DNA of 64,000 nt from Myxococcales bacterium. Lineage in GTDB: Bacteria; Myxococcota_A; Polyangia; Palsa-1104; JAEUJZ01. Location: the NCBI GenBank assembly GCA_016794505.1, contig JAEUJZ010000049.1, positions 136 to 64,135 on the forward strand. Direction: 5' to 3'. The translations under genes and the position numbers were made by a program. Of the stretch, positions 8,371 through 36,964 are shown piece after piece (the first letter of the stretch is position 1; each line of letters begins with the position of its first letter). The notes beneath the pieces are model-generated. The model ran no database searches, was not told the origin of the DNA, and saw only the letters and a program-made list of their open reading frames with translations.

Positions 8371-8400
8371 TTGTTCTATGTGAACTGGCAATTTTCTGCC
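8371..8400. repeat. att-like junction 3; contains an intact copy of the inferred target sequence ttctatgtgaactggcaattttctgcc (encodes FYVNWQFSA)
   Basis: left 16 bp match junction 2 and left 11 bp match junction 1; right 19 bp gaactggcaattttctgcc (8382-8400) are repeated at 36946-36964. Confidence 0.6.
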
Positions 8401-8497
8401 GGCGAAGCGCGATGACGACGGTGAGGGGAGGGAGCAGCGAGCCGAGTGCGGCGCTGGGTATCCCGCGGGCCCGGCGATGGATCGTGGATGAGGGGGA

Positions 8498-9409
8498 CTA
8501 CTCTGCGCCCGGCTCGGTGCTGCGCTCGTTTCGTGCAGCCAGCAGGGCATCGCTGGCCGACGGCGACATCATGGCCGCATCGGTGGCGCGCAAGCCGTCG
8601 AAGCCGACGAAGGCTACGGTGCGGTGGGGGCGAAGCTGCGAAAGCTCATAGAGCGTGTTGTACGCAGCAAAGACGGCCGCATTCTGCTTCAGCTCGGAAA
8701 AGACCTCTCCCATGGCCAGCGGATACTGCGACTTGGCATCGGCGACTAGCTTGGCCACCTTGGCGTCGGTCTCGGCATCCAGCATGGCCACAGCCAAGCG
8801 GCCTTCTTCTTCGATGCGCGCCTTCGCTCGCTCTTTGCGCGCCGCGACCGTCTCGAACATCAGGCGAGAGACTTCCGGCAGCAGGCGCACGTGGCGGACA
8901 AAGGCATTGCTGACCAAGAGGCCCCAGCGCTGACACTCGTCGTGCAGATCGCGCTTGAGGCGTTCGCACAGATCGGTGCGGTCGGTGAGGATGTGATTGA
9001 AGTCGAGGTTTGAAAGGATGGCGCGCGTGGCATGGGACGCCACATTGCGCAAGCTGCGATCCCAGTCCTGGACCGCGAACGCAGCCTTGGCTGGATCGAC
9101 AATGCGGAACTCTAACCACAGATCGACGATCAACGTCGTACCGGTGGCGTCGTTGATCTGGATGTTGTCGATCTCGCGAAAGTCCACTTGCTGTGACACG
9201 CGGCGCAGCGAGATCCACGGCAGCAGCAGGCCAGGGAAGATGTGCAGACCCGGCTCGGTCAGCACGCGATCCAGCTTGCCAAAGCGCGTAATCAGCACGG
9301 CCTCCTCGTCGGGTACTGCGACCACCATCATGCGGAAGATGCGCCACAGGATCAGCGCGCCACCGAGCGCGAGAGACAGCCCAAGGATGAATGCAATCTG
9401 CGGGCTCAT
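8498..9409 (-). CDS. SPFH/band-7 (stomatin/HflC-like) membrane protein
   Basis: N-terminal TM helix plus SPFH domain; 4-bp ATGA start/stop overlap with the upstream paralog. Confidence 0.7.
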   Translation of the reverse strand: MSPQIAFILGLSLALGGALILWRIFRMMVVAVPDEEAVLITRFGKLDRVLTEPGLHIFPGLLLPWISLRRVSQQVDFREIDNIQINDATGTTLIVDLWLEFRIVDPAKAAFAVQDWDRSLRNVASHATRAILSNLDFNHILTDRTDLCERLKRDLHDECQRWGLLVSNAFVRHVRLLPEVSRLMFETVAARKERAKARIEEEGRLAVAMLDAETDAKVAKLVADAKSQYPLAMGEVFSELKQNAAVFAAYNTLYELSQLRPHRTVAFVGFDGLRATDAAMMSPSASDALLAARNERSTEPGAE

Positions 9410-10314
9410 GCGGCCTCCTTCGCGGGGACTGTGGCAATGTTTTCTGGCTCGTGAATAAACAGCGAGCGCGCCTCGCCATAGACTTCAGCGCGACGTCGCG
9501 CAATGTACGCATCGAGCACGCCCGCTGCATGCAGTTGGCTTAAGTGAGCGGCCAAGACGCGCGCTTCTTCGGCAGCGGCTTGCGCGTGCGAGTGCGCGAT
9601 GGCGACACCGCGCTCGGCTGCGAGCAGCTTCTGCTGGTTGTCTGCTTCGGCTCGCGCATGCAGGGCATCGGCTTCTGCGTGCGCATTGATGACGGCATTC
9701 AGGGCATCGGCCAGCTCATCTGGGGGCAGGATGTCCGTTAGATCGACGGCGTGGAAGCGCACACCATAGTGTTCGCCGATGCGCTCGCGCACGAAGCGCT
9801 CAATACGGCTGTGCAGGCGCTGACGATCGCGGCGCAAAAGAGCATAGGAGCCAACCTCTGGCGTGGCCTCTTCTCCCTCGGGCCGGAAGTTGGCGATCTC
9901 GTTGCGCAGCAGGCAGGCGAACAAGCCCGTGATGTGCTCCATCGGAGCGCGTAGCTCAAACAAGTAGTCGTACAAGCGCTCGCGCAGCGGCGAAAAACGC
10001 AGGTTCGAGTCGAAGCGCAGCAGCGTCCCGTCCTCGGTCATGGCCGTCAGGCCGCGATGGTCACCGGACAGATCGAGATTCTGTTCCATCATCGACACCA
10101 AGTGGACGTAGTGCCATGGCGCTTTGCGGTTCAAGCCGGGCGAATAGATGCGCAGCGCCCGCTTGTCGGGACCGTCCGCCAGTGCCCGGCCAAAGCTGGA
10201 CAGCACCGCAAGGTGGCCTTCGGGGACGCGAAAGAAGCAGCGCGACAGCAGCACCAGGGCCAGGACACCTAGGCCGCAAAAGAACCCCCAGGTTGCATAG
10301 AGATTGCTCAACAC
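9406..10314 (-). CDS. SPFH/band-7 (HflK-like) membrane protein
   Basis: N-terminal TM plus SPFH domain; forms an operon with 8498-9409. Confidence 0.7.
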   Translation of the reverse strand: MLSNLYATWGFFCGLGVLALVLLSRCFFRVPEGHLAVLSSFGRALADGPDKRALRIYSPGLNRKAPWHYVHLVSMMEQNLDLSGDHRGLTAMTEDGTLLRFDSNLRFSPLRERLYDYLFELRAPMEHITGLFACLLRNEIANFRPEGEEATPEVGSYALLRRDRQRLHSRIERFVRERIGEHYGVRFHAVDLTDILPPDELADALNAVINAHAEADALHARAEADNQQKLLAAERGVAIAHSHAQAAAEEARVLAAHLSQLHAAGVLDAYIARRRAEVYGEARSLFIHEPENIATVPAKEAA

Positions 10315-10341
10315 GATTCGTTCCTTTCTGCGTCTGTGGTT

Positions 10342-12561
10342 CTAGAAGCGGGCGACATGGGCCCTAGACGCCGCCGCGGTATGGGCGCGCACTGGATCAT
10401 CGTCGGTGATCAGGCTGCCACGATGGATGTGGGCGCGATACGCTGCGGCCAGGCCGCGGTTGACTTCGACGACGTCTTCGTTGAACTCGATCTGCTTTTC
10501 GTTGATCAGTGGCAGCGTTTTGACCGCGTCTTGCGTGTCGATGATGCGGCCGTGCGGGACGAAGCGCCCTTCGGGGAGCTCGACGCCAACAACCACCGCG
10601 CCGATGCCGATAAAGCAGCGGCTGCCGATAATTGAGTCATGCACGACGGCCTTGAATCCAACGAACGTCTCGTCACCGATATAGCAGGGGCCATGGACAA
10701 GCGCGTCGTGCGCAATGGACACATTGCGGCCGATGAAGATGGCCCAGCGTTCGTTGCCGACGTAGACGTATTTGTCTTTCAGCGCGTGCAGGACGACGCC
10801 GTCTTGGATGTTGGTGTTGTCACCGATAAAAAACGGCGAGCCTTCATCGGCGCGCACCGACGATCCAGCGGCAAGATGCACATGATCGCCGAGCACGACA
10901 CGTCCAATCAGCACGGCTTGGTGATGCACGAACGCCGATCTCGCCATGATGGCCCGCCCGCGGATGTTCGACAGCCACTTCTGCCGCTCGGGGGGCGACT
11001 CGTAGTGACCGGAGTGCCGAGTGTGCTGCGTTTCTTCACGGTGCAGCGTGGCGCGAATGCCTCCGGCGCGCTGTTTTTCAAGCTGCTCGGCCACGGATTT
11101 TTCTCCGCGATGCAGATAGGCATGCACCGCATGCAGCGCGATGCCACCGATGAGGCCCCACATCAAGTGACCCGTGACTGTGCCCACGGCGGCAGCCAGA
11201 AATGCAAGCGCCTCGATGCGGCTCTCGTGATACAGCTTGACCAGCGTGCCGACCTCGATCAGGCGGCCACCGACGACGCACAGCAGCCCAGCCAAGGCCG
11301 CCAGCGGAATCTGCGCAATGTACTTGCTGCCGTACAGCATCGCGACAAGCAGCGCCAGCGCATGAACCAAGGCAGAAAGCCGACTGCGACCTCCCGACTG
11401 CACGTTGACGCCCGAGCGCACGATGACGCCTGTGACCGGCATGCCAGAAAACAGGCCCGAGCCCAGGTTGGCCAAGCCCTGACCGAAGAGCTCTAGGTTC
11501 GGGTCGTGATGCGAGCCGTCGCCTTTCATGCGATCGATGGCGCTCGCCGATAGCAGCGACTCGACCGAGGCCAACAGAGCCAGAGGTACGGCGCGGACGA
11601 ACAAGTCGAGCCACTTTTCATCCGGTTCGACGGGCAGCTTGGGCATCGGCAGCGACGATGGAATGGCACCGACTCGCTCGATGTTCCAGCCCAGGTATAC
11701 GGCGACGAAGGTCGCGACGATGACGCCGACCAGCGCCGCTGGAAAGCGCTTGAATCGCGACATGCCGATGGTGAACAGCGCCACCATCAGGCCGCAGACG
11801 ACGGCCAGCCAGACCACGTGATGCAGCCACAGAGGCTGATGCATCATCTTGGCCAGCTCAGACACTTTGTAGTCAAAGCCCAGAAGCTCGGGAATTTGCG
11901 TGTCGAGCAGCTTGAGGCCGACTCCGGTCGTGAAGCCCGCGAGTACGGACTCGGGCACTAGCTTGCCGTAACGACCGGCCATGGCGAAGCCCAAGATCAG
12001 CTGCAGAGCACCGATCATCAGAGCGACGGTGGCTACGCCTTCGGCGCCAAAGTCGGCGGTGATTGCGGCCACCATGACTTGCAGCGCCGCGGCCGGGCCG
12101 GTCACTTGCAATGGGGCGCCGCCAAAGATCGACGCCAGTGCGCCACCGATGGCCCCCGCCAAGAGCCCGGCACTCGGCGGTAGACCGCAGGCGACAGCCA
12201 GCGCCACGTTCAGTGGCAGCGCCACCGCCGCGACGGTCAGGCCAGCCAAGATATCCGACGGCAAGCCCTGACCCCGATGCACCGCGGCCCAGCTATTTAG
12301 CCAGTAGCGAGCGGCCGCCCGCACATCGCGGTGCCAGGCCTCGACGTACTCGCGCTGGTCGAAGGGACGGCCTATGCGCGCTGCTTTGCCTGGGGCGCCA
12401 CCTCGCGACGCGCTGGCTTTCGGGGGCGCCCGATACGGAACACCATGCTTTACAGGGGGCGCTGACGACGGGGGCATTGACGAGAGAGGCCGTGAAGATG
12501 CCGGAGCCTGCATGGCGCGCATTGTGCCGAACAAATGACGAAATCGTAATCCTTTCGTCAT
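10342..12561 (-). CDS. SulP-family anion (sulfate/bicarbonate) transporter fused to a C-terminal gamma-class carbonic anhydrase-like (left-handed beta-helix) domain; no STAS domain
   Basis: SulP TMD with LPSDILAGLTVAAVALP start motif; the C-terminal 200 aa match the gamma-CA family (IGDNTNIQDGVVLH, His ligands in VLHAL and SIAHDALVHG); single ORF with no intervening stop; start chosen at MTKGL, so the 112-aa upstream extension is rejected. Confidence 0.6.
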   Translation of the reverse strand: MTKGLRFRHLFGTMRAMQAPASSRPLSSMPPSSAPPVKHGVPYRAPPKASASRGGAPGKAARIGRPFDQREYVEAWHRDVRAAARYWLNSWAAVHRGQGLPSDILAGLTVAAVALPLNVALAVACGLPPSAGLLAGAIGGALASIFGGAPLQVTGPAAALQVMVAAITADFGAEGVATVALMIGALQLILGFAMAGRYGKLVPESVLAGFTTGVGLKLLDTQIPELLGFDYKVSELAKMMHQPLWLHHVVWLAVVCGLMVALFTIGMSRFKRFPAALVGVIVATFVAVYLGWNIERVGAIPSSLPMPKLPVEPDEKWLDLFVRAVPLALLASVESLLSASAIDRMKGDGSHHDPNLELFGQGLANLGSGLFSGMPVTGVIVRSGVNVQSGGRSRLSALVHALALLVAMLYGSKYIAQIPLAALAGLLCVVGGRLIEVGTLVKLYHESRIEALAFLAAAVGTVTGHLMWGLIGGIALHAVHAYLHRGEKSVAEQLEKQRAGGIRATLHREETQHTRHSGHYESPPERQKWLSNIRGRAIMARSAFVHHQAVLIGRVVLGDHVHLAAGSSVRADEGSPFFIGDNTNIQDGVVLHALKDKYVYVGNERWAIFIGRNVSIAHDALVHGPCYIGDETFVGFKAVVHDSIIGSRCFIGIGAVVVGVELPEGRFVPHGRIIDTQDAVKTLPLINEKQIEFNEDVVEVNRGLAAAYRAHIHRGSLITDDDPVRAHTAAASRAHVARF

Positions 12562-12700
12562 GTTGGCCGCGACACGCGCGCTCGGCCACTGCGGTGCGCC
12601 ATGACCGGATTCGTTCTTAGGGACTGCCTTTGATCTCGGCAGAGCAGAAAAAACTTCAAAAAATTTGCTCTGGTGATCCCTGCACGGCAGCATCTCTTGT

Positions 12701-13738
12701 GTGCCGATCTTTGCGCAATCCACCGAGCGCTCTCTGCGGGTATCTAGGCCTGTATTGGCCCCCGCGGCGGTTCCTGCCGATCCGTCGATATTTACCCCCA
12801 AGCTTACGCGGCAATCTTCGACCCGTCGACAGCCGGCTGTAGAGCCCGCGTTTGCCGGTATCGAGGCGCGGCCTTTCCTAAAGTGGGCGGGAGGCAAGCG
12901 ACAGCTCTTGCCGCAGCTTCTGTCGCGCGTGCCGGGGGCTTTCCGCCGCTACCACGAGCCATTTGTCGGTGGCGGGGCGCTGTTCTTCGCGCTACAAGCC
13001 CGGCAGCAGCTGCCGCAGGGGGCGCGGCTTTCGGATATCAACCCCGAGCTGGTGAATGCCTATCAGGTCGTCCGCGATCGCGTCGAGACCTTGATTGTTC
13101 TACTTGGTGCATTTCGCAATGAAGAGGATTTCTATTACGAAATCCGCGCGCAAGATCCCCAGACCTTAGATCCGGTACAGCGAGCCGCTCGTCTGCTTTA
13201 TCTAAACCGGACCTGTTTCAATGGTCTGTTTCGGGAAAACCGCGATGGCCGCTTCAATGTGCCGTTTGGGCGCTATCGCAATCTGCAGATCCTGCGAGAG
13301 AACGATCTGCGCGCCGCCAGCCGGGCCCTGCGCGGCATCTGCATCGAGCAGTCTTCGTTCGACGCGCTGGCCGACTGCGTCGAGCCGGGCGACTTCGTGT
13401 ACTTCGACCCGCCCTATGCGCCGCTGTCGCGTACGGCTTCGTTCACGTCGTACAGTCGAGGCGGCTTCGACGATGAGGCGCAGCGACGCCTGGGGGCGCT
13501 GGTGCGTGCGCTTTCGGCTCGCGGCGTTCACGTGCTTTTGTCGAACTCGTCGGCGCCGCTCATCTTCGACATCTATGACCACCCCGAGCACTTGGTCGAG
13601 CAGGTGCTGGCATCGCGCGCCATCAACAGCCGCGCCGACCGCCGCGGCAAAGTCCACGAAGTGCTGGTCGCCGCCGGCCCCCACGTCGACAGCCTGCGCC
13701 GCCGCCAAGCCTCCCAGCCGCTCTCGCTGTCTGCCTAG
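12701..13738 (+). CDS. Dam-family (D12 class) N6-adenine DNA methyltransferase, orphan
   Basis: RPFLKWAGGKRQLLPQL and DPPY motifs, collinear with E. coli Dam; no adjacent restriction endonuclease; GTG start, so the N-terminal extension is uncertain. Confidence 0.75.
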   Translation: MPIFAQSTERSLRVSRPVLAPAAVPADPSIFTPKLTRQSSTRRQPAVEPAFAGIEARPFLKWAGGKRQLLPQLLSRVPGAFRRYHEPFVGGGALFFALQARQQLPQGARLSDINPELVNAYQVVRDRVETLIVLLGAFRNEEDFYYEIRAQDPQTLDPVQRAARLLYLNRTCFNGLFRENRDGRFNVPFGRYRNLQILRENDLRAASRALRGICIEQSSFDALADCVEPGDFVYFDPPYAPLSRTASFTSYSRGGFDDEAQRRLGALVRALSARGVHVLLSNSSAPLIFDIYDHPEHLVEQVLASRAINSRADRRGKVHEVLVAAGPHVDSLRRRQASQPLSLSA

Positions 13739-14098
13739 CCAGCAGTTGGGCGGTCGCCCGCTGCAGCCTCGTTTCATGCTTTCTGTCACAGCTCCCAACG
13801 GCCATGACTGTCAGCCGAGCAAGGCGTGCGCCACGCAGTGTGGTGTGATAGCGCGCAGACCTTGCTGGCGCTGCGGGTCGGCCAGGCGATGTGCGGCACC
13901 GTCGCAACGGCGAGTCGGAGCAGCTTTCTTTGCGCGATCGCAGTCGATGCATGAGCGGCTGCGCGGGTCGAACGAACGCACTCGTGGGTTGAGCGGCCGC
14001 GTCGGCTTTCCACGGACTCCGACCGCCGGCTCGACGTCGCTCCTTCGTAGACTTGGCTTGCCGAGACGCGAATCCTGCTGCGAAGGTTATCGGAAGCG

Positions 14099-14125
14099 GA
14101 AGGTGTTTAATTTAAAAACACCTTC
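14099..14125. terminator. AT-rich perfect hairpin between the convergent Dam and C39-like genes (candidate bidirectional terminator)
   Basis: 10-bp stem gaaggtgttt/aaacaccttc with the 7-nt loop aatttaa; lies 3' of the minus-strand gene ending at 14167. Confidence 0.4.
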
Positions 14126-14166
14126 TTAGCCAGATCCGACTCATCTACGCTGGAAAATGGACCCAA

Positions 14167-15357
14167 TTATGCAGAATAGCCCTTGCGTGCAATCAGATCC
14201 GCGAGCTGATCAACGCCGAGCCAATATTGCGATTCGAAACCGGGGCGGTAATTGAACTTGGCAGGATCTGCGATAAGTGCAGCTTGCTCACTCTTATCGT
14301 ATCCGATGATACTTACATAGTGATAAATTGTCTCATCATCGGGATAGCCAGGAGGATTGGTATCGCCCGGCGGCGCAACAATATTGGCAACGATCGGATA
14401 GTTGTTATCGATGTCGGTGACGATGTCTTTCCACAAAAGATCGCGCTCTTCATCAGTCGCCGTTGCACCGGGAATGACCTTGTTTTCGTAATAACCAGTG
14501 CCCAGCCGTTCGTTTAGAGCCGACGTAATCAGGCCAATATGGGCTGTACCGACGACGTCGTTGGTGCCCAGCTGGTCGGCTAGCTCGCCCTGCGTCGGTG
14601 GGTTGTCCATCCGGGCCGACAGCGCAATTCGCGTCGAGGCCGGCCCGCACCAGTGACCCCATTCTTGCTGCTGGAAGTCGACATCGAGAATCTTGCGGTC
14701 CTCTTCGGTTGCTTCGGGACCACCGCCTCCCGTCTGCGGCATCGGAGCCCGTGCGGGCGGCGCGCCCCCACCCAGAGCGGGAGCAAAGTGCGAGACCTTG
14801 TGCCCCGCAGAGGCCTCCATTCCCGCCGTCGCAGCCGCCACTTTCTTCAGCAGATCGGCCTTCTTGCCATCGGGAGCCGCCTGGACCGCCGCCGCAAGGT
14901 TTTCCTTCAGAGCCGCTTTCTGTTCGGACGGGGCGTCCGGTCCCGTGGCCTTCGCTGCCCTCTTCGCCGCGATCGCGACTTTCTGGTCGGGAGGTGCCGC
15001 CTTTCCGAGCGTCTTGGCGGCCATCTTGGCGGCGAGCTCGACCTTTTGTGGATCGGGCGCAGTCTTGGACGCAGGTGCCCCACCGGGAGCCGCCCCAGCC
15101 TTCTGGGCGAGTGCTGGTTCCAGCTTGGCCAGCGCCTGAGGAGCCGCCTTGGCTGCACCGCCAGCATCGGTCATATGACCAAACAAGCTGGACAGAGCTT
15201 GGCTCGTCTTGGCCTGGGCCACAGGCTCGGCGACGGGTGCCGGAACGGCTGCGGACACAGGCGCGGCGGCCGATGGCGCAACCGACTTTGGAGCGGCACT
15301 GGACGGTGGGCTGGTCGGATGTACAGCAGCCTTCTTGAGCGCACCATCGAACGACAT
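14167..15357 (-). CDS. protein with Ala/Pro-rich low-complexity N-terminal half and C-terminal papain-fold cysteine peptidase domain (Peptidase_C39-like)
   Basis: Gln...WCGPAS...HYVSIIGYD arrangement (Gln/Cys/His); the C-terminal domain DNA (14167-14700) is clearly lower GC than the N-terminal-half DNA. Confidence 0.55.
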   Translation of the reverse strand: MSFDGALKKAAVHPTSPPSSAAPKSVAPSAAAPVSAAVPAPVAEPVAQAKTSQALSSLFGHMTDAGGAAKAAPQALAKLEPALAQKAGAAPGGAPASKTAPDPQKVELAAKMAAKTLGKAAPPDQKVAIAAKRAAKATGPDAPSEQKAALKENLAAAVQAAPDGKKADLLKKVAAATAGMEASAGHKVSHFAPALGGGAPPARAPMPQTGGGGPEATEEDRKILDVDFQQQEWGHWCGPASTRIALSARMDNPPTQGELADQLGTNDVVGTAHIGLITSALNERLGTGYYENKVIPGATATDEERDLLWKDIVTDIDNNYPIVANIVAPPGDTNPPGYPDDETIYHYVSIIGYDKSEQAALIADPAKFNYRPGFESQYWLGVDQLADLIARKGYSA

Positions 15358-15688
15358 GGAACAGTCCCCCGAAATGCTCGCAGCACAGCGAAATACTAAT
15401 AGTATCGCTGACTCAGCATTTCAGTTGCGCGGCTTTTTTCCGGTGATGTTCCCCCTACAGCGCGGCCCTTATCGCACTGGTTACCTCGATAGTCGTCTAC
15501 TGGTTCAATCCTATGTGCTCGGATATGGAGTCAGCGCCGAGCCCGCTGCACGGGTGACAAGCTACCTGTGCGCCGTGTTTTTCGGCGTGCTTCCGTTTGC
15601 GGCCTGGATGGTGCGATTGCGCGTTAGGCGCAACGCAGCGCTGCTCCGCTTGGCACATGCCGAGCGCGTCAGACCGCGACCGCGTGGG

Positions 15689-22125: not shown

Positions 22126-22140
22126 TTGGACTCTCCTTGT

Positions 22141-26789: not shown

Positions 26790-28442
<1,653 letters not shown>

Positions 28443-29022: not shown

Positions 29023-29034
29023 CGGAGCCTTGCC

Positions 29035-29985: not shown

Positions 29986-30001
29986 GCCCAAGCCCGCGCG
30001 A

Positions 30002-30652
30002 CTACAGCCGCTCGTCCGCTTCGAACTCGGCCGTGTACTTTTCGAGATCGATGCCTTGATCTTGAAGCGGCTTGCGCACGCGATAGCGTGTGACTTTCGC
30101 GCTCGACAGGATGAAGGAACGAATTACTTCCTCGCGCCCGACGATACGAGTCGATTCGGCCAGGTATTCGGCGTTCTTTGAAACGCGCCAGCGCACCAGT
30201 GCGCGGAACAGCGCCGGCACGCTCTTGAGCAGCACTTTGAGCAGCTCTTCTGCCTCGGGACGCCACGACAGCTCTTTTGGCAGCTCGGGCGTATAGCCGT
30301 ACTCGTCTTCGCTGAGCTCGCGCCACAGAACCAGGCTATTCCCGTCGCTGTCTGCGACCTGAGAAAACAGCTCGTGTTCTTCGGTGCGCATCGGCTCATA
30401 GCGCACGCGCAGCCCTAGATCGACCAGTTTCTGGGTCGTTTCCTCGACGTTGTTGACCTGGATGCGCAGCGTAACCGGGTGTTCCACGTGGCGCGTCTTG
30501 AGCAGCCGCAAGATGCAGGTTCCGGTGTCGACATCGACATACCCTTCGCCGCGGCGCTTGACCCAAAACGGCAAGTGCTGCGTGAACAGCTGTTCGCTGT
30601 GTTCCAAGCTGGTCACCGGCACATCAATGTGGCTTAACCCGAGGATTCCCAT
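30002..30652 (-). CDS. VOC/glyoxalase-family domain protein with C-terminal extension
   Basis: N-terminal glyoxalase-like beta-alpha-beta-beta-beta module. Confidence 0.45.
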   Translation of the reverse strand: MGILGLSHIDVPVTSLEHSEQLFTQHLPFWVKRRGEGYVDVDTGTCILRLLKTRHVEHPVTLRIQVNNVEETTQKLVDLGLRVRYEPMRTEEHELFSQVADSDGNSLVLWRELSEDEYGYTPELPKELSWRPEAEELLKVLLKSVPALFRALVRWRVSKNAEYLAESTRIVGREEVIRSFILSSAKVTRYRVRKPLQDQGIDLEKYTAEFEADERL

Positions 30653-30756
30653 GGCGATCTCTTGGCAGGCGAGATCAGCGTATCAACATTTCCAAGCGTC
30701 CGGGCTTTTGTCTGCGCTGTCCTCGGAAGGGATGCGAAAACGAGGCGCCTTTGCGG

Positions 30757-31848
30757 CTAGCGCAGCTTGAGAGCGGTGGCTTCTTGTTCGGCGCTGAGTC
30801 CAGCGCGCAGCTTGGCTTGACGCTCGGCAGGCAGCGTCTGCCACCACGCTAGCGTGTCGGCGATCGTCGTCGCGAGCGGCCGAAACGTCAGCCCGGTCTT
30901 GATGGCGCGTGCATGACTGACCTGGGCCATTCCGATGTCACTGGGCGGGACCCAGATCGGCACATGGTCGAGGACCCCTGCTTGCTTGAGCTTGTCGGCT
31001 GAGATCCACACGAAGCGCGCATCGGACTTGGTGACGCGCTTACACGTCTCAAGCAGCTCGCCCATGCTCAGTTTTTTTTCTGGGCCGACCAAGTTGAACA
31101 CGCCGCTTTGACCTGCGATCGCTTGCGTCACCATCCAGTCGCCCAGATCGCGCACATCGATGATCTGCACAGGGTCGCTGGCGGTGCCGGGCGCCAGCAT
31201 CTCTCCACCGCGGCGTACACGCAGAGGCCACGATGTGAAGCGATCCGTGGGGTCGCGTGGGCCGACGATGTAACCGGGTCGGACGATCAGTGCAGCCCCT
31301 GGGAAGGCGGCCTGCGCGGCTTGCTCACAGAGCACTTTCAATCCGCCGTACGTGCCCTCGGTGATCTTTTCCACTGTCGGATCGCTGAGCGTCGCAAGCT
31401 CAGAGTCTTCCGCGAGCGGCTTGGTCATGTCTTTGTACGCCGAGACCGACGAGACAAAGACATAGGACTTCGCGCGCCCCTTGAGCGCCGCAGCCATGTT
31501 GCGAATCTGTCGCGGGTAATAGCCTGAGGTATCGATGACCGCATCGAAGCTGCGGCCCGCAAACAAGCTGGTCAGCGTAGCGACATCGGCGTTGCGGTCG
31601 CCGTGAATCTTTTCCAGTTCGGGAAACAGGCCGGGGTTGGTTTTACCGCGATTGAACAGCGTGATCTTGGCGCCGCGGCGCTTGGCTTCCTCGACGAATG
31701 CTGGGCCGACAAAGCTCGTGCCACCAATCATCAAGAAGTGCTTGCCGGCACCCGATGCGGCGGCTGCAGCGTCGCTGTGCGCGGGCCAAAAGGGCAGCGA
31801 GAGCGCTGCGCCAGCCGAGGACAAAAGAAAAGTTCGACGAGACTGCAT
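30757..31848 (-). CDS. NAD-dependent epimerase/dehydratase (SDR family) with twin-arginine signal
   Basis: SRRTFLL Tat motif; GGTSFVG Rossmann motif. Confidence 0.7.
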   Translation of the reverse strand: MQSRRTFLLSSAGAALSLPFWPAHSDAAAAASGAGKHFLMIGGTSFVGPAFVEEAKRRGAKITLFNRGKTNPGLFPELEKIHGDRNADVATLTSLFAGRSFDAVIDTSGYYPRQIRNMAAALKGRAKSYVFVSSVSAYKDMTKPLAEDSELATLSDPTVEKITEGTYGGLKVLCEQAAQAAFPGAALIVRPGYIVGPRDPTDRFTSWPLRVRRGGEMLAPGTASDPVQIIDVRDLGDWMVTQAIAGQSGVFNLVGPEKKLSMGELLETCKRVTKSDARFVWISADKLKQAGVLDHVPIWVPPSDIGMAQVSHARAIKTGLTFRPLATTIADTLAWWQTLPAERQAKLRAGLSAEQEATALKLR

Positions 31849-31913
31849 GGGGGCTCCTTTTTTTCAGCAGACAAGACGGGGACGCAGGCATCCCGGAAGC
31901 GGGCCGCGAGTAC

Positions 31914-33335
31914 TCAGCGCAGGGCCAAGCGCAGCACGTGGGCTGCCGCGCGCAGCGGCGCATCAAGGCGCAGTCGTTCCTGCACATCGCTTGTGTGCAG
32001 AACGCGCGAGAGCTGCCGCTCGTACGTCCGTCCGTCGGGCACGCTCAACGCCACTTCGACATCCGGCACCAGCCCCTGACCTTCGATGACGTCACCGCGC
32101 GGCAACAGAAAGTGGCTGGCCGTGAACTTGTAAGCATAGCCATTCGGCAGCTCTTCCAAGCGCTGCACCGTGCCTTTGCCATAGGTTCGCGCACCGACGA
32201 GATGAGCACCGGCTCCATCATGCAGCGCTCCGGCCAAGAGCTCGGCACTCGACGCCGTCTCGCGATCGACCAAGAGCGCAAGCGGCCACTTCACCTTGTC
32301 TCCACTTTTCTGCGCGGCGATGGTCTCGATCTGACCGCCGCGGTGGCGCAGCTTGGTGACCGGCGTGCCCTTGGGCAGGAACAGCTCGGCAGTCGCGATG
32401 GCTTTTTCAAAAAGCCCTCCTTGGTTGCCGCGCAGATCGACCACCAGCGCCCGCGTCTGTTTCTGTGCCAGCTCGCGCAGCGCTTGCTCGATCGCGGCCG
32501 GCGTTCCTTCGGTGAACTGACGGATAAACAGATAGCCAATTCCGTCGGGAAAAACGATCGGCTGCACCAGATCGTAGGCAACGCGCTCGCGGCGAATGGA
32601 AAGCGTCAGCACGTCCGCGCCACGCAGGGCCGTCAAGCTCACCACTTCCCCTGGCTTGCCGCGCAGGTCGCCCACGACATCGCGCAGGCTCTTGCCCTTG
32701 TACAGCTTGCCGCCGACGGTGAGGATCTTGTCGCCATCGCGCATGCCCGCTCGCTCGGCCGGCGATCCCGGAATGACTGCCAGAACATCCGAGATCCCGC
32801 TGTCTGCATCAAAGCGGATTTCGACGCCGATGCCGACGATGCTGCCCTGCATATCGGCCTGTAACTCGCGCAGCTCCTCTGGCGACATCAGCTTGTTCCA
32901 TGCGGCAAGCTGCGGTTCCAGAAGCTGCAACATGCCGGCGGTGGCAGCGCGGTACAGCTCTTCTTCTGTGAGGCCCGCGCGATAGTATTTGCTGCGCAGC
33001 GTGTCTTTGACAGCGCGGAACGCCTGCTCACCGCCGAGGAAAGGCACGCTAGACAGCGTCGCCAGATCGGTCGGCGACGGGGGCCCTGCGCTGCCTGTCG
33101 AAGCCAAAGACGAAGAGCCCGGTGCGCTGCTCGCAGGGTCGCTGGCCTGCTGTGCGCTGGGCGGTGGGGCGCTGGCTTTTGGCGCCTTGGCAGGCAGTCG
33201 CTGGCAGCCACTGCCGAAAAACAGCGCGCAGGATCCCAACAAGGCCGACAGCCAGCCAAGCGCGCTCGGCCGAGCTGGTTTGGTTCGCTGTATCCGTCGC
33301 TGCAGCGTCTGTGATCGAGGCGTTGAACGGTGCAT
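31914..33335 (-). CDS. carboxyl-terminal processing protease (S41 family, PDZ-containing)
   Basis: GNQGGL and TASSAELLAGAL...GTVQ motifs. Confidence 0.8.
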   Translation of the reverse strand: MHRSTPRSQTLQRRIQRTKPARPSALGWLSALLGSCALFFGSGCQRLPAKAPKASAPPPSAQQASDPASSAPGSSSLASTGSAGPPSPTDLATLSSVPFLGGEQAFRAVKDTLRSKYYRAGLTEEELYRAATAGMLQLLEPQLAAWNKLMSPEELRELQADMQGSIVGIGVEIRFDADSGISDVLAVIPGSPAERAGMRDGDKILTVGGKLYKGKSLRDVVGDLRGKPGEVVSLTALRGADVLTLSIRRERVAYDLVQPIVFPDGIGYLFIRQFTEGTPAAIEQALRELAQKQTRALVVDLRGNQGGLFEKAIATAELFLPKGTPVTKLRHRGGQIETIAAQKSGDKVKWPLALLVDRETASSAELLAGALHDGAGAHLVGARTYGKGTVQRLEELPNGYAYKFTASHFLLPRGDVIEGQGLVPDVEVALSVPDGRTYERQLSRVLHTSDVQERLRLDAPLRAAAHVLRLALR

Positions 33336-33349
33336 GATGTCCCCCTGGT

Positions 33350-33877
33350 TTAGTAGTAGGTGATGCTGATGGCTTGCATGCGGGCGCTGTCGAACTCGCA
33401 GCCGAGCGGTGTGCCGTCGGGCACGAGACGCACAGGCGTCGGCTCGGACGGCGCTGTGAACGTGGGCTCAGGCTGCGAGTGCTGCGTCTGGCCTTGTACC
33501 TGCAAAAGGACCAGGCTGCTGACCGCCGTGATCGCGATCGCACCGACGGCAGCGCGATACCGCGGCAGCGGCTGCGAGAGCCACGTCGAAAACGACTGCA
33601 CGATGTGGTGCATGCGAGATGCGCGTGGCTCGGGCAACTTGGCTGGCTCAGGTGGCAGCAGCCAGGCCTGGACATCCCGTCGCAGTCGAGCGTGGCAGCG
33701 CGCTGACGGCTGCTCGGCCATGGCCTCTGCGCTGTCGATATCCAGCTTGAGGTCGAAGTACGCCTGTGCGCACGCTCCGCAGCTTCGCAGGTGTTCGCGC
33801 AGCGCCTCTCGCGCGCCCTGAGTGCAGCTTGCAAAGTGAAATGACACCAGTTCGTCTTGAACGTCCGCGCACTGCAT
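33350..33877 (-). CDS. putative zinc-finger anti-sigma factor
   Basis: HxxxCxxC motif (HLRSCGAC); single TM; immediately downstream of the ECF sigma gene. Confidence 0.55.
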   Translation of the reverse strand: MQCADVQDELVSFHFASCTQGAREALREHLRSCGACAQAYFDLKLDIDSAEAMAEQPSARCHARLRRDVQAWLLPPEPAKLPEPRASRMHHIVQSFSTWLSQPLPRYRAAVGAIAITAVSSLVLLQVQGQTQHSQPEPTFTAPSEPTPVRLVPDGTPLGCEFDSARMQAISITYY

Positions 33878-33883
33878 GCGCAG

Positions 33884-34486
33884 CTACTCCTTCTTGGTTG
33901 TGTCGTCGCTGAGCTGCGCTTGCAGCCGCGACGTCATTTGGTTCATTCGCGACTTCACCGTGCCGAGCGGAAGCCCCAGCCGCGCGGCCATCTCTTCGTA
34001 CGAAAGACCTGCCGTGCGCAGGCGATAGATCTCGGAAAGCGGCGCTGGCAGAGCATCGACGGCGCGGCCTAGCTGTGCGGCTGTCTCGCTCTGGCTCAGG
34101 GCTTCGTCTGCGATGGCATGGTCGGACGCCGACAGCGATTCGGACGAAGCATGCGCCGCGCTGCGTCGGCGCTGGGTGCGCAAATGATTCAGCGCCGCGT
34201 TGCGTGCGATGCGGTACAGCCACGTCGCAAAGCTCGCGCGGTCCAGCGTGACCTGTCGGCTGCGCAGCACGCTCAGGAACGCTTCATGGAACAGATCTTC
34301 CGCATCGTGGTGGTTGTGAACCATGCGCACTAGAAAGCCGAAAAGCCGCAGCTCGTACCGACGATACAGAGCATCAAAGGCACGCAGATCGCCGGCCCAG
34401 ATGCGTTGGTACAGCACCTCGTCCGCTACATCGAAAGAAGGCTCATCTGCGGGGGCCGGCACGGCAGGTCTTGTGTGTACCAACAC
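33884..34486 (-). CDS. ECF (sigma-70 family) RNA polymerase sigma factor
   Basis: region 2 (DLFHEAFLSVL...YRIARNAALN) and region 4 HTH (LSYEEMAARLGLPLGTVKSRM). Confidence 0.85.
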   Translation of the reverse strand: MLVHTRPAVPAPADEPSFDVADEVLYQRIWAGDLRAFDALYRRYELRLFGFLVRMVHNHHDAEDLFHEAFLSVLRSRQVTLDRASFATWLYRIARNAALNHLRTQRRRSAAHASSESLSASDHAIADEALSQSETAAQLGRAVDALPAPLSEIYRLRTAGLSYEEMAARLGLPLGTVKSRMNQMTSRLQAQLSDDTTKKE

Positions 34487-34680
34487 CGCGGCCGGGGTTT
34501 TGTTCAGAAAAAATGCAGCTCACGCGTGGGCACCATCCGCAGTGACGAAACGCGGCGCTGTTACGCGACGAGCGCGCTGCGCCGATGGGTCACGATCCCC
34601 TAAAGAACGCGAGGCCGCGAGGCCGAGAGGCGAGTTTGCGGTGGAATGGGGTCGGAAATTTTGATGTAATTCAAATTACT

Positions 34681-36246
34681 ATGAAATTTCTTGCAAATAG
34701 CGCTGGCGGAGTGGCTCTGCTCCTTTGCATGAGTGCCGCGCTGGCTCCGGCTGCGCAGGCGCAGGTGCCCGCTGCGGCCCGAGGGCACTTTCAGCGGGGC
34801 AGCGAGCACTATCGCAAAGGTCAGTTCGACCAAGCTGTGCGTGAGTTTTCGGCTGCGTACGAGACGTATCCGTCGGCGCGTCTGATCTATGACGTGGCTC
34901 AGGCCGAGCGCAAGCAGGGCTTGCTGGCAGACGCGGCGCGTCACTATGAGCAGTTTCTGAAGCAAGAAAAAGCCATCACGCCTCTGACGCGCGGCGTGGT
35001 TCAAAGCTATCTGCAGCGACTGCGAGGCACTGCCGCGGGTCGTAAGCCTCCGGTTCCACCGCGCAACATGCCTGAGCTGTTTGATCCAGCGCTCGGTGCG
35101 CCGCTGGGTTCAGGGGCTGGCTCACCGTCGGCACAGCCTGCTTCTGCGCCAGCCAGTCCGCCTGTCGCGCCCCCGGCGATGCCGGCTGTGGCAGCAACCC
35201 CAAGTGGGCAGCCAGCTTCTTCTGCGGCGCCCGCACGCGTCGAGCAGAAGCCCGCGGTCGCAGCGGCAGCCCCCCCGCCAGCAGCACCTGCGTCCGCGGT
35301 TGCTTCTGCAGCTTCTGCAGCTTCTGCGTCCCCGGCTGCGCCGGCCGGGCCGACCCCGAGCTATGGCATTGTCAGGCTGCAGCAAGGCGCCCCTGCAGCG
35401 ACGGTAGCAGCACCCAGCAAGCCGATCAGTGGGCGCTGGCTGCCGGTGCCGGTCAATCCGTCATTCACTCTGCGTGATGTCGTTGTTCAAGGGGATGCTC
35501 TGTTTGCGGTGGGCGACGGAGGCGTCTTTTTTGTCGCGCTGCAGGATGGGATCTTTCGAGCGGTGCGCAGCGGCGTGAACAACTGGCTGTCGGGCGTGTG
35601 GGGCGTCGGCAACGAGCTCTTCATGACGGGCGACAGCGGCACCATTCTGCGTCGCTTTGGCGGTCGCATGAAGCCAGTGGTCAGCGGCACGACCAAGACT
35701 CTATTTGCCATCGGTGGCACGGCCAACGAATGGTTTGCCGTTGGCGAGGCGGGTGTGGCAGTGCGCTGGAATGGCAGCGGTTTTTCACCCGTGCCCACGG
35801 GAACGCGGCAGCCCCTTTTCGCCGTGCAGGCCCTCGACGGCGAAGTCTTTGCGAGCGGCGGTGGCGGTCTGATCCTGCGCTGGAACGGCGCCGCCTTTGT
35901 GCCGATGGAGAGCGGCACGTCAAGCTGGCTGCATGCGATGTGGGGGACTTCGCGCAGCGACGTCTTTGCGGTGGGCGCGCGTGGCACGATCCTGCACTTC
36001 GATGGGCGCGCATGGACCCAGCAGGCCAGCGGCACGAACGAGACGCTCTTGGCCATCTGGGGAACGGCAGCCGATCGCGTGGTAGCCGTCGGATCGCGCG
36101 GCACGATCCTGCACTATCACGGCGGCAGCTGGCGACCGGCCAAGAGCGGCACGCAGGCCAGCCTGTTTGGGGTCGTGGGTCGCGATGTGGACACGATCTA
36201 TGCCGTGGGCGACGCGGGCACGGTGCTGCGCCTGCAGCCCGAATAG
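34681..36246 (+). CDS. secreted Ycf48-like/BNR-type beta-propeller repeat protein with Ala/Pro-rich linker
   Basis: signal peptide; repeated W..G....V.AVG..GTIL..DG..W blades. Confidence 0.65.
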   Translation: MKFLANSAGGVALLLCMSAALAPAAQAQVPAAARGHFQRGSEHYRKGQFDQAVREFSAAYETYPSARLIYDVAQAERKQGLLADAARHYEQFLKQEKAITPLTRGVVQSYLQRLRGTAAGRKPPVPPRNMPELFDPALGAPLGSGAGSPSAQPASAPASPPVAPPAMPAVAATPSGQPASSAAPARVEQKPAVAAAAPPPAAPASAVASAASAASASPAAPAGPTPSYGIVRLQQGAPAATVAAPSKPISGRWLPVPVNPSFTLRDVVVQGDALFAVGDGGVFFVALQDGIFRAVRSGVNNWLSGVWGVGNELFMTGDSGTILRRFGGRMKPVVSGTTKTLFAIGGTANEWFAVGEAGVAVRWNGSGFSPVPTGTRQPLFAVQALDGEVFASGGGGLILRWNGAAFVPMESGTSSWLHAMWGTSRSDVFAVGARGTILHFDGRAWTQQASGTNETLLAIWGTAADRVVAVGSRGTILHYHGGSWRPAKSGTQASLFGVVGRDVDTIYAVGDAGTVLRLQPE

Positions 36247-36453
36247 GATCCGGTGCAGCCCGCGCATGGTCTCGTCTTGTGGCGTGCGTGCGCTGCGATT
36301 CAGGCGTGTTTCCTGCTTGCGTGTCTGTCGCTGACGACGTAGCTATAGGCCACGAAACGGTATGGACGGCCACTTCGTGAACGATCCGCTGGCTGCTTTG
36401 CTGCGGCGAGTGGGCTGCGACATGGCTGGCCAGCCCTCTTACAAGGACGCCTC

Positions 36454-36744
36454 ATGGAGCCGCTGGAACGAGAAGAAGACATCACCGCCAGGCAGTGCTT
36501 GGCGGCGCGTACGCTGTTGGGCTGGTCGCAGGCTCGACTCGCTGAGCTAGCCGGGGTGCCGCTGCGCAGCGTGCGCGCGTTTGAAGACTTGGTCGCGCAG
36601 CCTCTTGAGAAAGAAATCGTCGCCCTTCGATTGGCTCTTGAAGCAGGTGGCATCGTATTCAGCGCGGGTCCGCAAGGCAGCGAAGGAGCGCGCCTGCGAC
36701 GCTCAGACGAGCCGGCTCGGCCGCCCCATGTCACCTTGCACTAG
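36454..36744 (+). CDS. small HTH (XRE-like) DNA-binding protein
   Basis: ARTLLGWSQARLAELAGVPLRSVRAFE helix-turn-helix. Confidence 0.4.
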   Translation: MEPLEREEDITARQCLAARTLLGWSQARLAELAGVPLRSVRAFEDLVAQPLEKEIVALRLALEAGGIVFSAGPQGSEGARLRRSDEPARPPHVTLH

Positions 36745-36945
36745 GCGCGTTCATCCTGGGCAAGGGATGCTGGAATCGGTCGCGTAACGCCAGCCAGCTA
36801 TAGGTCGCCGACTTCCTTATCATCCCGTGGTTATCCCTCGATCATCGCGCGGCGCTCGTCTGGGACATTTGTCGATGGAGCCGCTGGCTGATCTCGTCTT
36901 TTGCCAACCCCGCGAACACAGAGCCCTTTTCCGCCCAGCCACATA

Positions 36946-36964
36946 GAACTGGCAATTTTCTGCC
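36946..36964. repeat. att-like junction 4 (gaactggcaattttctgcc), 19-bp direct repeat of 8382-8400; right boundary of inserted DNA
   Basis: exact 19/19 match; the ABC reading frame resumes immediately (NWQFSAVIF...). Confidence 0.6.

Follow-up and report, generated by a model that had tools for sequence, protein, structure and literature searches.

E3, an att-bounded segment carrying guaBA in a split ABC exporter gene of an uncultured Polyangia bacterium, is probably an integrative element without its integrase

The 64-kb stretch of DNA analysed here (the window) belongs to an uncultured Polyangia (Myxococcota) bacterium and contains three tandem elements, designated E1, E2, and E3, that split an msbA-like ABC exporter gene. 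We consider it probable that E3 (8382-36965), the third member of the E1-E2-E3 array, is a genuine site-specific integrative element of the CIME (cis-mobilizable element) type that has lost its integrase, with sites that still recombine and a native cargo.

Core repeat of E3 and the split exporter gene

The original prediction described E3 as flanked by a perfect 19-bp direct repeat. The pair is indeed exact: GAACTGGCAATTTTCTGCC was found in exactly two copies in the 64-kb window, both on the + strand (8382-8400 and 36946-36964), with no further copies there when up to three mismatches were allowed, and 0 of 100 shuffles yielded two matches. The length, however, is 20 bp. The full repeat, GAACTGGCAATTTTCTGCCG, extends one base further (8382-8401 and 36946-36965), and only ~0.002 exact 20-mer pairs are expected by chance in 64 kb. 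This repeat forms the core that attL and attR of the integrative element E3 share, with an exact 20-bp copy at either end and the target gene rebuilt in frame. Viral contigs scanned for the 20-mer gave zero matches.

At the left copy (site 3, attL core of E3, 8382..8401, + strand, exact string match), ABC-derived sequence spans 8373-8401. This junction recurs in another metagenome-assembled genome (MAG; contig L013), and in contig L060 it is fused directly to the ABC 5′ part. At the right copy (site 4, attR core of E3, 36946..36965, + strand, exact string match), L011 and L012 become homologous to the window exactly at 36946; the attR junction is also present in L058 and, based on 13 bases, may be common to the 82%-identical lineage L003. 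The sequence CACATAGAAC at 36940 was considered as a chance palindrome of GTTCTATGTG, which was rejected: it equals the E1 core in the integrase-to-core reading (CACATAGAACAG) and was therefore taken as a family-typical attP sequence and not as proof of inversion. It is not kept in L003, which has CCACTAGAAC.

The 5′ part of the exporter gene, the integration target, occupies 2..403 (+ strand; Pfam ABC_membrane, profile positions 45-140). It extends past the left window edge, its ORF continues into E1 up to a stop at 421, and it shares 66.7-68.9% identity with the intact homologues of L004 and L005. The 3′ part (36947..38218, + strand) comprises the end of the TM domain and the ABC ATPase domain (Pfam ABC_membrane 158-268, ABC_tran), with protein identities of 94% to L003 and L011 and 87% to L012. 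As had been noted from the sequence, the ABC frame resumes at the second repeat copy, which encodes N-W-Q-F-S-A of the transporter from 36947. Joining 2-403 to 36947-38218 in silico gave an uninterrupted ORF, and the rebuilt junction (..GTVFFLFYVNWQFSAVIFLALLPAAFG..) aligned gap-free with that of the intact homologue P0001 (..GTVGFLFYLNWRFAAVVFLALVPAAFG..); the intact target ORF after precise excision, with 403 joined to 36947, is an in silico product.

The 3′ half of the gene showed dN/dS of 0.04-0.07 at dS 0.84-1.2; thiolase, a housekeeping gene nearby, is under equally strong purifying selection. Truncated 5′ fragments formed nine clusters (68-99% identical) that all end in FLFYVN(W) and differ in their tails, and the 5′ halves of all nine stay in frame up to the junction, down to 68% identity. 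Both halves appear to be kept functional by selection, a pattern that frequent reversible integration would also produce. Intact ABC genes were found only at ≤75% identity (P0001, P0002, P0005), and closer relatives were all interrupted at the same codon. A search of 5.8 billion proteins yielded no full-length ABC protein with more than 75% identity, and no empty attB was seen. In L011 and L012, a third integrase type and its arm abut the same position of the gene. Judging from these alignments, the ABC gene is an integration hot spot, interrupted at one codon across the clade in every close relative sampled.

The E1-E2-E3 array and the recombinase of E3

Four att-like sites with nested 12-, 16-, and 20-bp cores partition the three segments, which lie in the order E1-E2-E3 with own core repeats of 12, 16, and 20 bp, respectively, E3 being innermost. 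E1 (404..6019, + strand; Pfam, arm sites) is an integrative element of 5.6 kb whose orientation is opposite to that of E2 and E3. Its attL core (site 1, CTGTTCTATGTG, 12 bp, 392..403, + strand) is an exact string repeated at 6020-6031. By Pfam, it encodes int1 (565-1647, + strand), a legume-lectin-domain protein (1762-3591), and an OmpA/TSP3 protein (3636-5843), and its arm-type sites read GGGATCA, two of them lying 11 bp apart (514, 525) and the third at 5954. A variant without E1 exists (L060).

E2 (6037..8371, − strand; Pfam, arm sites) is a minimal 2.35-kb integrative element with a CAP-domain protein (6363-7043, + strand; Pfam), a full-length int2 (7123-8256, − strand), and arm-type sites CGTCGTCC at 8247, 8258, and 6084. 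Its attL core (site 2, TGTTCTATGTGAACTG, 16 bp, 6021..6036, + strand) overlaps the E1 attR core and is repeated at 8372-8387. The Logan contig L072 (2367 bp, 4 samples) is exactly E2 with the 16-mer at either end. With catalytic R..K..HxxR..H..Y residues in int1 and catalytic residues present in int2, both are intact tyrosine integrases of 58% mutual identity; the R-K-H-R-H-Y set of an integrase was found in E1 and E2 and not in E3. No conjugation or mobilisation module was detected in the array members, and no transfer module in the family relatives E1, E2, L011, and L012.

In agreement with the original prediction, no integrase, relaxase, or phage structural gene was found among the main ORFs of E3 by Pfam. 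Tblastn with int1 and int2 detected no integrase remnant between 8402 and 36945, and Pfam, NCBIfam, and PHROGs detected no relaxase, T4SS, or coupling-protein family in E3, three of whose proteins (309, 964, and 154 aa) had no match in any of them. An integrase pseudogene at the right end was also rejected, with none found by tblastn and the arm homology stopping just left of the arm repeats.

The left arm of E3 (8402..8497, + strand) is of the integrase-distal, P′ type and ends at the SPFH2 stop. It has one arm-type site, GGTATCC at 8459, in the position and orientation of the distal sites of E1 and E2, which is weak alone at a motif frequency of 0.77 per kb. The right arm (36815..36945, + strand), of the integrase-proximal, P type and without an integrase gene, aligns with the int-proximal arms of E2, E1, L011, and L012. 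It contains the arm-type repeats TATCATCC at 36819 and GTTATCC at 36832, and AACCCCGCGAA at 36906, 40 bp ahead of the core. The layout is common to E1, E2, and E3: on the integrase side, two sites lie ~115-125 bp from the core, and on the opposite side one lies ~50-65 bp from it. Having kept the integrase-proximal arm while the integrase gene is gone, E3 fits the CIME definition. The survival of this arm indicates integrase loss, and the ancestor of E3 was probably a plain integrative element.

The suggestion that int2 mobilises E3 found no support in the arms, as the E3 repeats (TATC(A)TCC / GTTATCC) are unlike those of int2 (GTCGTCC) or int1 (TGATCC). They resemble those of the third integrase type, which adjoins the ABC 3′ part in L011 and L012; no integrase of the matching type is encoded in the 64-kb window. 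The recombinase for E3 would act in trans, and the best candidate, going by the arm repeats, would be this third type beside the ABC 3′ part in relatives, with int2 and int1 as alternatives. HTH96, a small HTH protein at 36454-36744 (+ strand), was considered as an excisionase and rejected. It has a weak HTH_3/antitoxin-like match and adjoins SPFH2 also in a relative without an att site, and so is probably an ordinary regulator.

Cargo, its origin, and junction forms in public assemblies

Pfam confirmed the gene content of the segment as first described. The cargo (8498..36744; Pfam, NCBIfam, PHROGs) starts with SPFH2, SPFH1, and SulP-LbH, a SulP fused to a hexapeptide-repeat domain (all − strand), followed by Dam (+ strand). 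Next comes a 9.8-kb nested block (13740-23545) of C39_2/endolysin-like, abhydrolase, LCM methyltransferase, two unknown, and C39-like genes; by Pfam, two genes of E3 are Peptidase_C39_2-like. After guaA (23545-25092, − strand) and guaB (25089-26717, − strand) lie, in order, genes for a Ser/Thr kinase (STK), the unknown 154-aa protein, DUF4397, glyoxalase, epimerase, CtpA (S41), an anti-sigma candidate with a weak zf-HC2/RsrA-like match, ECF sigma, and a TPR protein, and then HTH96. The low-GC stretch pointed out earlier was located at ~20-23.3 kb. Rfam gave nothing on the whole window or on the conserved Dam upstream region, and neither a replication initiator nor partition genes of a plasmid or episome were found in E3 with Pfam, NCBIfam, or PHROGs. 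Housekeeping cargo without mobility, replication, or transfer genes is atypical and counts against E3 as mobile.

The E3 cargo appears to be the lineage's own chromosomal DNA and not foreign, since cargo and flank diverge from a sister MAG to overlapping extents and have the same codon usage, and since the cargo genes stand in a permuted order in that MAG. Codon usage of E3 and flank correlates with an RSCU r=0.986 (GC3 0.76 vs 0.77), and dS ranged over 0.64-1.14 in three E3 genes, against 0.84-1.15 in three comparisons for the flank, made with relatives of similar distance. The identities of GuaB homologues (99/93/91/83/78%) fall off in parallel with those of the ABC and SulP homologues, and STK-guaB-guaA synteny is kept in relatives. 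GuaB thus looks like a vertical orthologue and guaBA like the native copy; the earlier speculation about a second, resistance-related copy found no support. STK-guaB-guaA lies in ordinary chromosomal context in L067, as does guaB-guaA in L069/L070, adjoining Obg, Pth, and ribosomal protein genes.

The sister MAG GCA_041908565.1 holds the same genes in circularly permuted order and without att sites, on contigs L016 (SulP-SPFH1-SPFH2-HTH96-TPR-ECF) and L068 (STK-guaB-guaA-Dam-HK). Its HTH96-SPFH2 spacer contains no core, arm, or any att sequence. The complete attP-type module of E3 lies between these two genes, plain neighbours in the sister MAG. The original prediction had named a single-copy guaBA, with the block contiguous and syntenic in repeat-less relatives, as a sign that the repeat arose otherwise; the order was found to differ, and the E3 ends are adjacent in L016, as predicted by integration of a circle. 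The homology of L068 ends at junction x (12650..12655; blastn, alignment), where the Dam upstream region meets the SulP upstream region; in L068, Dam is followed there by a histidine kinase and a response regulator. An att scar at junction x was rejected, with only a 7-base, non-significant match to the core. A metagenome scan with the TPR protein returned only distant relatives (≤47% identity), useless for synteny.

The junction of joined E3 ends (HTH96-P arm-core-P′ arm-SPFH2) was found in four independent assemblies from two assemblers at 99.7-100% identity. Contig L062 (ENA ERZ27258465) aligns to the predicted junction over 3212 bp with 99.66% identity, and attP-specific k-mers were present in L057 (SRR12425357), L063 (DRR438498), and L066 (SRR9852186). 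Accretion differs between strains: L060 (ERZ27258503) passes from ABC5′ through the core directly into E3, without E1/E2, whereas L059 has the arrangement of the window. Many contigs end exactly at the core, among them L061, which is continuous through the Dam|SulP junction. The end of L058, exactly k-1 bases into ABC 3′, was rejected as evidence of an empty site, since L059, assembled from that sample too, is unbroken through site 3. These junctions suggest that the E3 sites still recombine, the joined-ends contigs standing for a circle or a tandem alike. With the joined ends in four assemblies, E3 behaves as an island needing recombination in trans. Of the two origins originally offered, an island mobilised in trans by int2 or a capture of chromosomal DNA, both hold some truth, given the joined ends and the native cargo; int2 as the agent found no support.

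Proposed history, alternatives, and relation to known systems

We propose that E3, as a circle bearing attP (P arm-core-P′ arm), would have recombined with the ABC gene, and the existing strain with ABC5′-core-E3 and neither E1 nor E2 fits this step. E2 would then have entered the E3 attL via the 16-bp core, and E1 the E2 attL via the 12-bp core in the opposite orientation, using the other half of the quasi-palindrome CTGTTC-TATGT-GAACTG. Because the cargo order is a circular permutation of the sister genome order, a chromosomal segment would once have become the element body, after which it would have moved through a circle opened at attP; the event may also have run the other way. With guaBA on board, E3 would be costly to lose for good, which would help explain its persistence.

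Single- and double-inversion models with breakpoints at the ABC site and HTH96/SPFH2 had been suggested by the layout of L005, in which SulP-SPFH-SPFH is preceded, 1.5 kb upstream, by an intact ABC gene. These models were rejected, as they reproduce the junction types but not the spacing or the ABC 3′ orientation; double inversion also requires a new ABC3′-RRM-thiolase adjacency, and L003 and L011 share that adjacency. Compared with the inversion models, only integration of a circle fits. It is unlikely, though worth weighing, that the joined ends come from chromosomal tandem duplication only (E3-core-E3), with E3 a fixed, amplifiable, non-excising segment. A tandem array predicts the same junction sequence, no intact ABC gene marking an empty site appeared among the 5.8 billion proteins, and guaBA would make excision and loss costly. 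However, a tandem formed via a 20-bp repeat needs a site-specific recombinase, whether by a circle entering a resident copy or by attL x attR between sister chromosomes, so the att sites would be active either way.

We regard it as improbable that the joined-ends contigs stem only from another strain in the samples, one with the block chromosomal in the relative's order and a relic att within it (..TPR-HTH96 | SPFH2-SPFH1-SulP..), and with no circle or recombination today. Metagenomes do hold strain mixtures, and L016 of GCA_041908565.1 has just this adjacency as ordinary chromosome; its spacer, however, lacks core and arm, whereas the joined-ends contigs carry the full P arm-core-P′ arm at 99.7-100% identity. 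Such a strain must also break Dam|SulP, which L059, L060, and L061 cross unbranched, while the assemblies branch exactly at the core. Little probability falls to E3 as a small plasmid-like replicon or 'chromid', mostly circular and co-integrating via a borrowed att site. The joined-ends form was assembled in several samples, the relative's order, known from short contigs, would also fit a closed circle with HK-RR placed between Dam and SulP, and the 309-aa, 964-aa, and 154-aa unknown proteins could hide replication functions. Against this stand the lack of Rep, Par, or relaxase families (Pfam, NCBIfam, PHROGs), the ordinary chromosomal context of guaBA in L067 and L069/L070, and a codon usage identical to that of the chromosome. 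The probability is negligible that the repeat arose by chance or through misassembly in ordinary contiguous chromosome: the cargo looks entirely chromosomal, but the chance expectation is ~0.002, the break in the ABC gene coincides exactly with the repeat, and both junctions were reproduced in independent assemblies from two different assemblers. The 20-bp repeat is also shorter than every k used, which makes chimeric k-mers from it impossible.

The definitions of CIMEs and accretion used here are those of PMC5704250 and PMC6323972, which cite Pavlovic 2004 and Bellanger 2011; one example is CIME-ICESt3 of Streptococcus thermophilus. Like CIMEs, E3 retains attL and attR without an integrase or transfer gene, stands in tandem with functional relatives that entered its att site, and has neighbouring integrases with the same target that are only distantly related (47-58% identity). 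Unlike CIMEs, no E1-E2-E3 member has a conjugation or mobilisation module, so ICE/IME descent is without support here; E3 targets a protein-coding gene in its middle and does not repair it; the cargo consists of housekeeping DNA of the host lineage (guaBA, sigma/anti-sigma, kinase) and not accessory; and the host is an uncultured myxobacterium. In PMC9376610, an integrase encoded by a neighbouring island, GIsul2, is proposed to mobilise the integrase-less CR2-sul2 unit in trans. E3 resembles it, as described there, as a recombinase-less segment with a circle proposed via an integrase encoded elsewhere, but the E3 arm-type sites argue against its two adjoining integrases. 'Gene capture' after accretion appears in a passage of PMC5704250 that cites Bellanger 2011. 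In aberrant excision of the lambda gal/bio type, as in E3, native chromosomal genes form the body of an att-bounded segment. That process, however, takes DNA adjoining the integration site and leaves a hybrid att, whereas the E3 block comes from elsewhere, is circularly permuted, and has a complete attP-type module between genes plainly adjacent in the relative.

The skin element in sigK and the nifD/fdxN elements of Anabaena are gene-interrupting switches. SPbeta in spsM of Bacillus likewise interrupts a gene and acts as a switch (PMC5499854), and the comK prophage of Listeria represents 'active lysogeny' (PMC7397523). Like these elements, E3 lies inside a protein-coding gene whose frame precise excision would restore, and the gene is under strong purifying selection (ABC, dN/dS ~0.04). 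Unlike E3, they encode their own recombinase; moreover, three elements must leave to restore the ABC gene in this strain, and the restored gene was not observed.

Tandem accretion and att-bounded elements lacking an integrase have been described mainly in Firmicutes and actinomycetes, where they carry accessory genes. Here, the CIME/accretion logic is seen in uncultured myxobacteria, with two unusual features, a housekeeping body and a mid-gene ABC target. An E3 body with apparently native guaBA would be a natural case of core genes turned excisable, and it suggests a route for an element to become impossible to lose. An ABC gene interrupted in a clade yet under purifying selection calls for very frequent reversible integration or functional interruption. 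Speculatively, and with a rather low probability, the array might be a domesticated reversible rearrangement switch, in which the exporter is split across a Polyangia clade and programmed excision would reassemble it in some cells, guaBA letting the integrase-less E3 excise transiently and never be lost. The host group is known for multicellular development, and if this switch reading were true, the array would resemble sigK/skin or the 'active lysogeny' of comK in a developmental bacterium.

The split ABC exporter gene and its insert

The window opens within an msbA-like ABC exporter gene, whose 5' part (2-403) corresponds to positions 45-140 of the Pfam ABC_membrane profile and whose 3' part (36947-38218), which includes the ATPase domain, picks up at profile position 158. 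Joining 403 to 36947 in silico gave an unbroken ORF, and the rebuilt junction (..GTVFFLFYVNWQFSAVIFLALLPAAFG..) aligned without gaps with the matching stretch of an intact homologue (P0001). Since the two parts rejoin in frame, 36.5 kb has been inserted in the gene. Four related sites mark off three segments in the insert. At site 1 (392-403) the ABC 5' part ends in CTGTTCTATGTG and E1 begins; C-TGTTCTATGTGAACTG stands between E1 and E2 at site 2 (6020-6036), and TGTTCTATGT-GAACTGGCAATTTTCTGCCG between E2 and E3 at site 3 (8372-8401); at site 4 (36946-36965) E3 is followed by GAACTGGCAATTTTCTGCCG and then by TCATC.. of the ABC 3' part.

E1 (404-6019, 12-bp flanking repeat) encodes the integrase int1, a lectin-domain protein and an OmpA/TSP3 protein. 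The minimal E2 (6037-8371, 2.35 kb, 16-bp repeat) encodes a CAP-domain protein and a second integrase, int2, and E3 (8382-36965) has a 20-bp repeat. Both int1 and int2 encode full-length tyrosine integrases in which no catalytic residue is missing, and the two share 58% identity. E1 is oriented opposite to E2: its core, read from integrase to core, is CACATAGAACAG, and of the quasi-palindrome CTGTTC-TATGT-GAACTG it uses the half on the bottom strand, the top-strand GAACTG being used by E2, E3 and the elements of relatives. E3 would have entered the ABC gene first, E2 would then have integrated into the left attachment site (attL) of E3, and E1 into attL of E2. The order of the sites, with ABC-derived sequence extending to 8401 at site 3, is the one expected from such a succession.

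The original prediction had E3 flanked by perfect 19-bp direct repeats. The repeat is indeed exact and present twice, at 8382 and 36946, with identity running one base further to give a 20-bp core (GAACTGGCAATTTTCTGCCG, 8382-8401 and 36946-36965). The window holds no further copy of the 19-mer at up to three mismatches, none of 100 shuffles contained two 19-mer matches, and only about 0.002 exact 20-bp pairs are expected by chance. Pfam searches confirmed the predicted gene list for E3, as well as the lack of any integrase, relaxase or phage structural gene between the repeat copies, and tblastn with the neighbouring int1 and int2 found no integrase remnant inside E3. The junctions read ..TTCTATGT-core-GCGAAG.. 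at the left end (attL), ..CCACATA-core-TCATCT.. at the right end (attR) and ..CCACATA-core-GCGAAG.. when the ends of E3 are joined (attP); the predicted empty ABC site (attB) is ..TTCTATGT-core-TCATCT...

Junction variants in other assemblies

Contigs collected by exact-protein look-up for HTH96 and SPFH2, encoded at the right and left ends of E3, were 99.7-100% identical to the window, yet had differing junctions. One of them (L062; ENA ERZ27258465, MEGAHIT) reads TPR-HTH96-P arm-core-P' arm-SPFH2-SPFH1 and matches the predicted ends-joined sequence of E3 at 99.66% over 3212 bp. The joined-ends type was also found in L057 (Logan SRR12425357, 20.9 kb), which stops 10 bases beyond the 20-bp core in the E3 left arm, and in L063 (DRR438498) and L066 (SRR9852186), both opening with 10 P-arm bases, the core and the E3 left arm. 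L060 (ERZ27258503) passes from the ABC 5' part through the core directly into E3, without E1 and E2. Logan contigs from SRR12144679 represent attR (L058) and the window arrangement, SPFH2-int2-CAP-OmpA-lectin (L059); two further Logan contigs (L061, L064) start precisely at the core, and L061 crosses the Dam-SulP junction unbroken. As all k values of these assemblers exceed the 20-bp length of the repeat, the joined-ends k-mers must stem from reads. We conclude that the E3 att sites recombine in present-day populations, yielding either a free circle or a copy in tandem. E3 has real att bounds and no integrase, belongs to a strain-variable tandem array and exists in an ends-joined form. No empty site was found, and full-length ABC proteins in the protein collection reached at most 75% identity. 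A further contig, L072, seen in four samples, is exactly E2 with the 16-mer at each end; in a k=31 graph this means alternative junctions for E2 too, and it suggests that E2 also circularises.

The ABC gene is interrupted in relatives as well, its insertion site being a hot spot across a clade. In L011 (the sister MAG GCA_041908565.1, Polyangia) and L012, a third type of integrase and its arm directly precede the ABC 3' part (94% and 87% protein identity, respectively), and similarity to the window starts exactly at 36946. L003, whose ABC 3' protein is 94% identical, extends 13 bases leftward beyond the core, into sequence resembling the E3 arm. The end of L013, which belongs to another MAG (93% nucleotide identity), is formed by TGTTCTATGT, the core and the E3 left arm. 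ABC 5' fragments were found in nine clusters at 68-99% identity to that of the window, and in all nine the ABC sequence breaks off directly behind FLFYVN(W) and is followed by differing tails, which means that different elements are attached. The intact ABC genes encountered all had 70-75% identity. The ABC 3' half shows dN/dS of 0.04-0.07 at dS of 0.84-1.2, the same dN/dS as the neighbouring thiolase gene.

Every contig with one of the 5' fragments (P0241-P0249) is short, which fits assemblies breaking at a variable site; one fragment, 99% identical, reads FLFYVN-RRAIA* and represents a fourth type of junction. The Logan contigs L005-L010 have an intact ABC gene (70% identical) that is co-oriented with SulP-SPFH-SPFH and located 1.5 kb upstream of it. 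These four genes are also linked in the window, in another geometry; the linkage may be a coincidence or the trace of an older rearrangement at the ABC site. Elsewhere in the window, a trio of histidine kinase, OmpR-type response regulator and CpxP/LTXXQ-like protein (41856-44818) is missing from the otherwise syntenic L003. A low-GC patch (52600-55300) with an HTH_3 + Peptidase_M78 (ImmA/IrrE-like) protein (53133-54314) and an IS1-like DDE transposase fragment (54359-55270) is probably another small mobile-element remnant.

Attachment arms and the candidate integrase

The region left of site 4 was aligned with the arms on the integrase side of the core in E2, E1 and two relatives. The E3 right arm contains two tandem arm-type repeats, TATCATCC at 36819 and GTTATCC at 36832, some 115-125 bp away from the core; the motif AACCCCGCGAA lies 40 bp before the core, compared to 39 bp in E2, and arm similarity ends at the expected position of the integrase start codon. 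On the far side of the core, at a distance of 50-65 bp, the repeat of each element occurs once more: GGGATCA at 5954 in E1, GCGTCGTCC at 6084 in E2 and GGTATCC at 8459 in E3, the last being weak evidence taken alone. The E3 repeats are similar to those that accompany the integrase type of the relatives (GTTATCCnnnnGTTATCC in L011 and L012), an integrase sharing just 47-51% identity with int1 and int2, and are unlike the repeats of int2 (GTCGTCC) and int1 (TGATCC). We infer that E3 is recombined in trans by an integrase of this family. Judged by the arm repeats, the best candidate would be the L011/L012 type, which is absent from the window, followed by int2 and int1. Mobilisation in trans had been proposed with int2 as the mobiliser; the existence of the ends-joined form agrees with the former, and the dissimilarity of the E3 repeats to GTCGTCC speaks against the latter.

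Origin of the cargo and relation to known systems

Codon usage in the conserved part of E3 matches that of the right flank (r=0.986), as does GC3 (0.76 versus 0.77). Identity of GuaB homologues declines gradually (99, 93, 91, 83, 78%), and that of ABC and SulP homologues similarly. Three E3 genes gave dS of 0.64-1.14 against the sister MAG, and three flank comparisons with similarly distant relatives 0.84-1.15. Comparison of guaBA synteny showed the order STK-guaB-guaA kept in L067 and L068, and guaBA among Obg, Pth and ribosomal protein genes in the more distant L069/L070.

In the sister MAG, the gene order is SulP-SPFH1-SPFH2-(328-bp spacer)-HTH96-TPR-ECF-anti-sigma on L016, with neither core nor arm in the spacer, and STK-guaB-guaA-Dam-HK-RR on L068. 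The two ends of E3 are therefore plain neighbours there, and the Dam-SulP junction of the window (about 12650-12655) is absent; together these make the window order a circular permutation of the relative's order. The permutation is opened at the HTH96/SPFH2 spacer, the present place of the attP module. Models explaining the permuted order by inversion failed. The body of E3 thus appears to be chromosomal DNA turned element cargo, and the presence of guaBA on it should penalise loss of E3.

A 9.8-kb block (13740-23545) has no counterpart between guaA and Dam in L068 and has a lower GC3 (0.68), with a low-GC core at 20-23.3 kb. It encodes a C39_2/endolysin-like protein, an abhydrolase, an LCM methyltransferase, a second C39-like protein, and 309-aa and 964-aa proteins without any family match, and is a nested insertion or deletion. 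Upstream of Dam, a 70-bp non-coding stretch (12655-12725, TTCAAAAAATTTGCTCTGGTGATCC..GCAATCCAC) is identical at 69/71 positions in L068, compared to only about 73-85% identity for coding DNA of the two genomes; it had no Rfam match and may function as a regulatory site or encode a small RNA. Beside this stretch in L068 (about 5440-5470) lie two TGTCGACTTG repeats 11 bp apart, and the HTH96-SPFH2 spacer of L016 (3786-4112) holds 3-4 tandem GCGACGTCTGACCGC repeats with a 13-bp period. Both sets of repeats may serve as arm-type sites for a different integrase, or may be regulator boxes.

The skin element of sigK is defined by an element-encoded recombinase and programmed excision. The same features define SPbeta/spsM (PMC5499854) and the 'active lysogeny' of comK (PMC7397523). 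E3 resembles all three in that a gene under selection is persistently split, and differs in having no recombinase of its own. Cis-mobilizable elements (CIMEs) keep attL and attR and have lost integration and transfer genes (PMC5704250, PMC6323972); E3 fits this definition, with both att sites retained and neither kind of gene present. Like CIMEs in accretion, E3 stands in tandem with functional relatives; unlike them, it belongs to an element family in which every member lacks a transfer module, its target is the middle of a protein gene, left unrepaired, its cargo is housekeeping genes and its host is a myxococcotan. Literature searches aimed at a comparable description in Myxococcota returned none. 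The observation behind the original prediction is real and its reading largely right; its interest rests on the housekeeping cargo, the direct evidence for joined ends and a gene that is interrupted clade-wide and still under selection.
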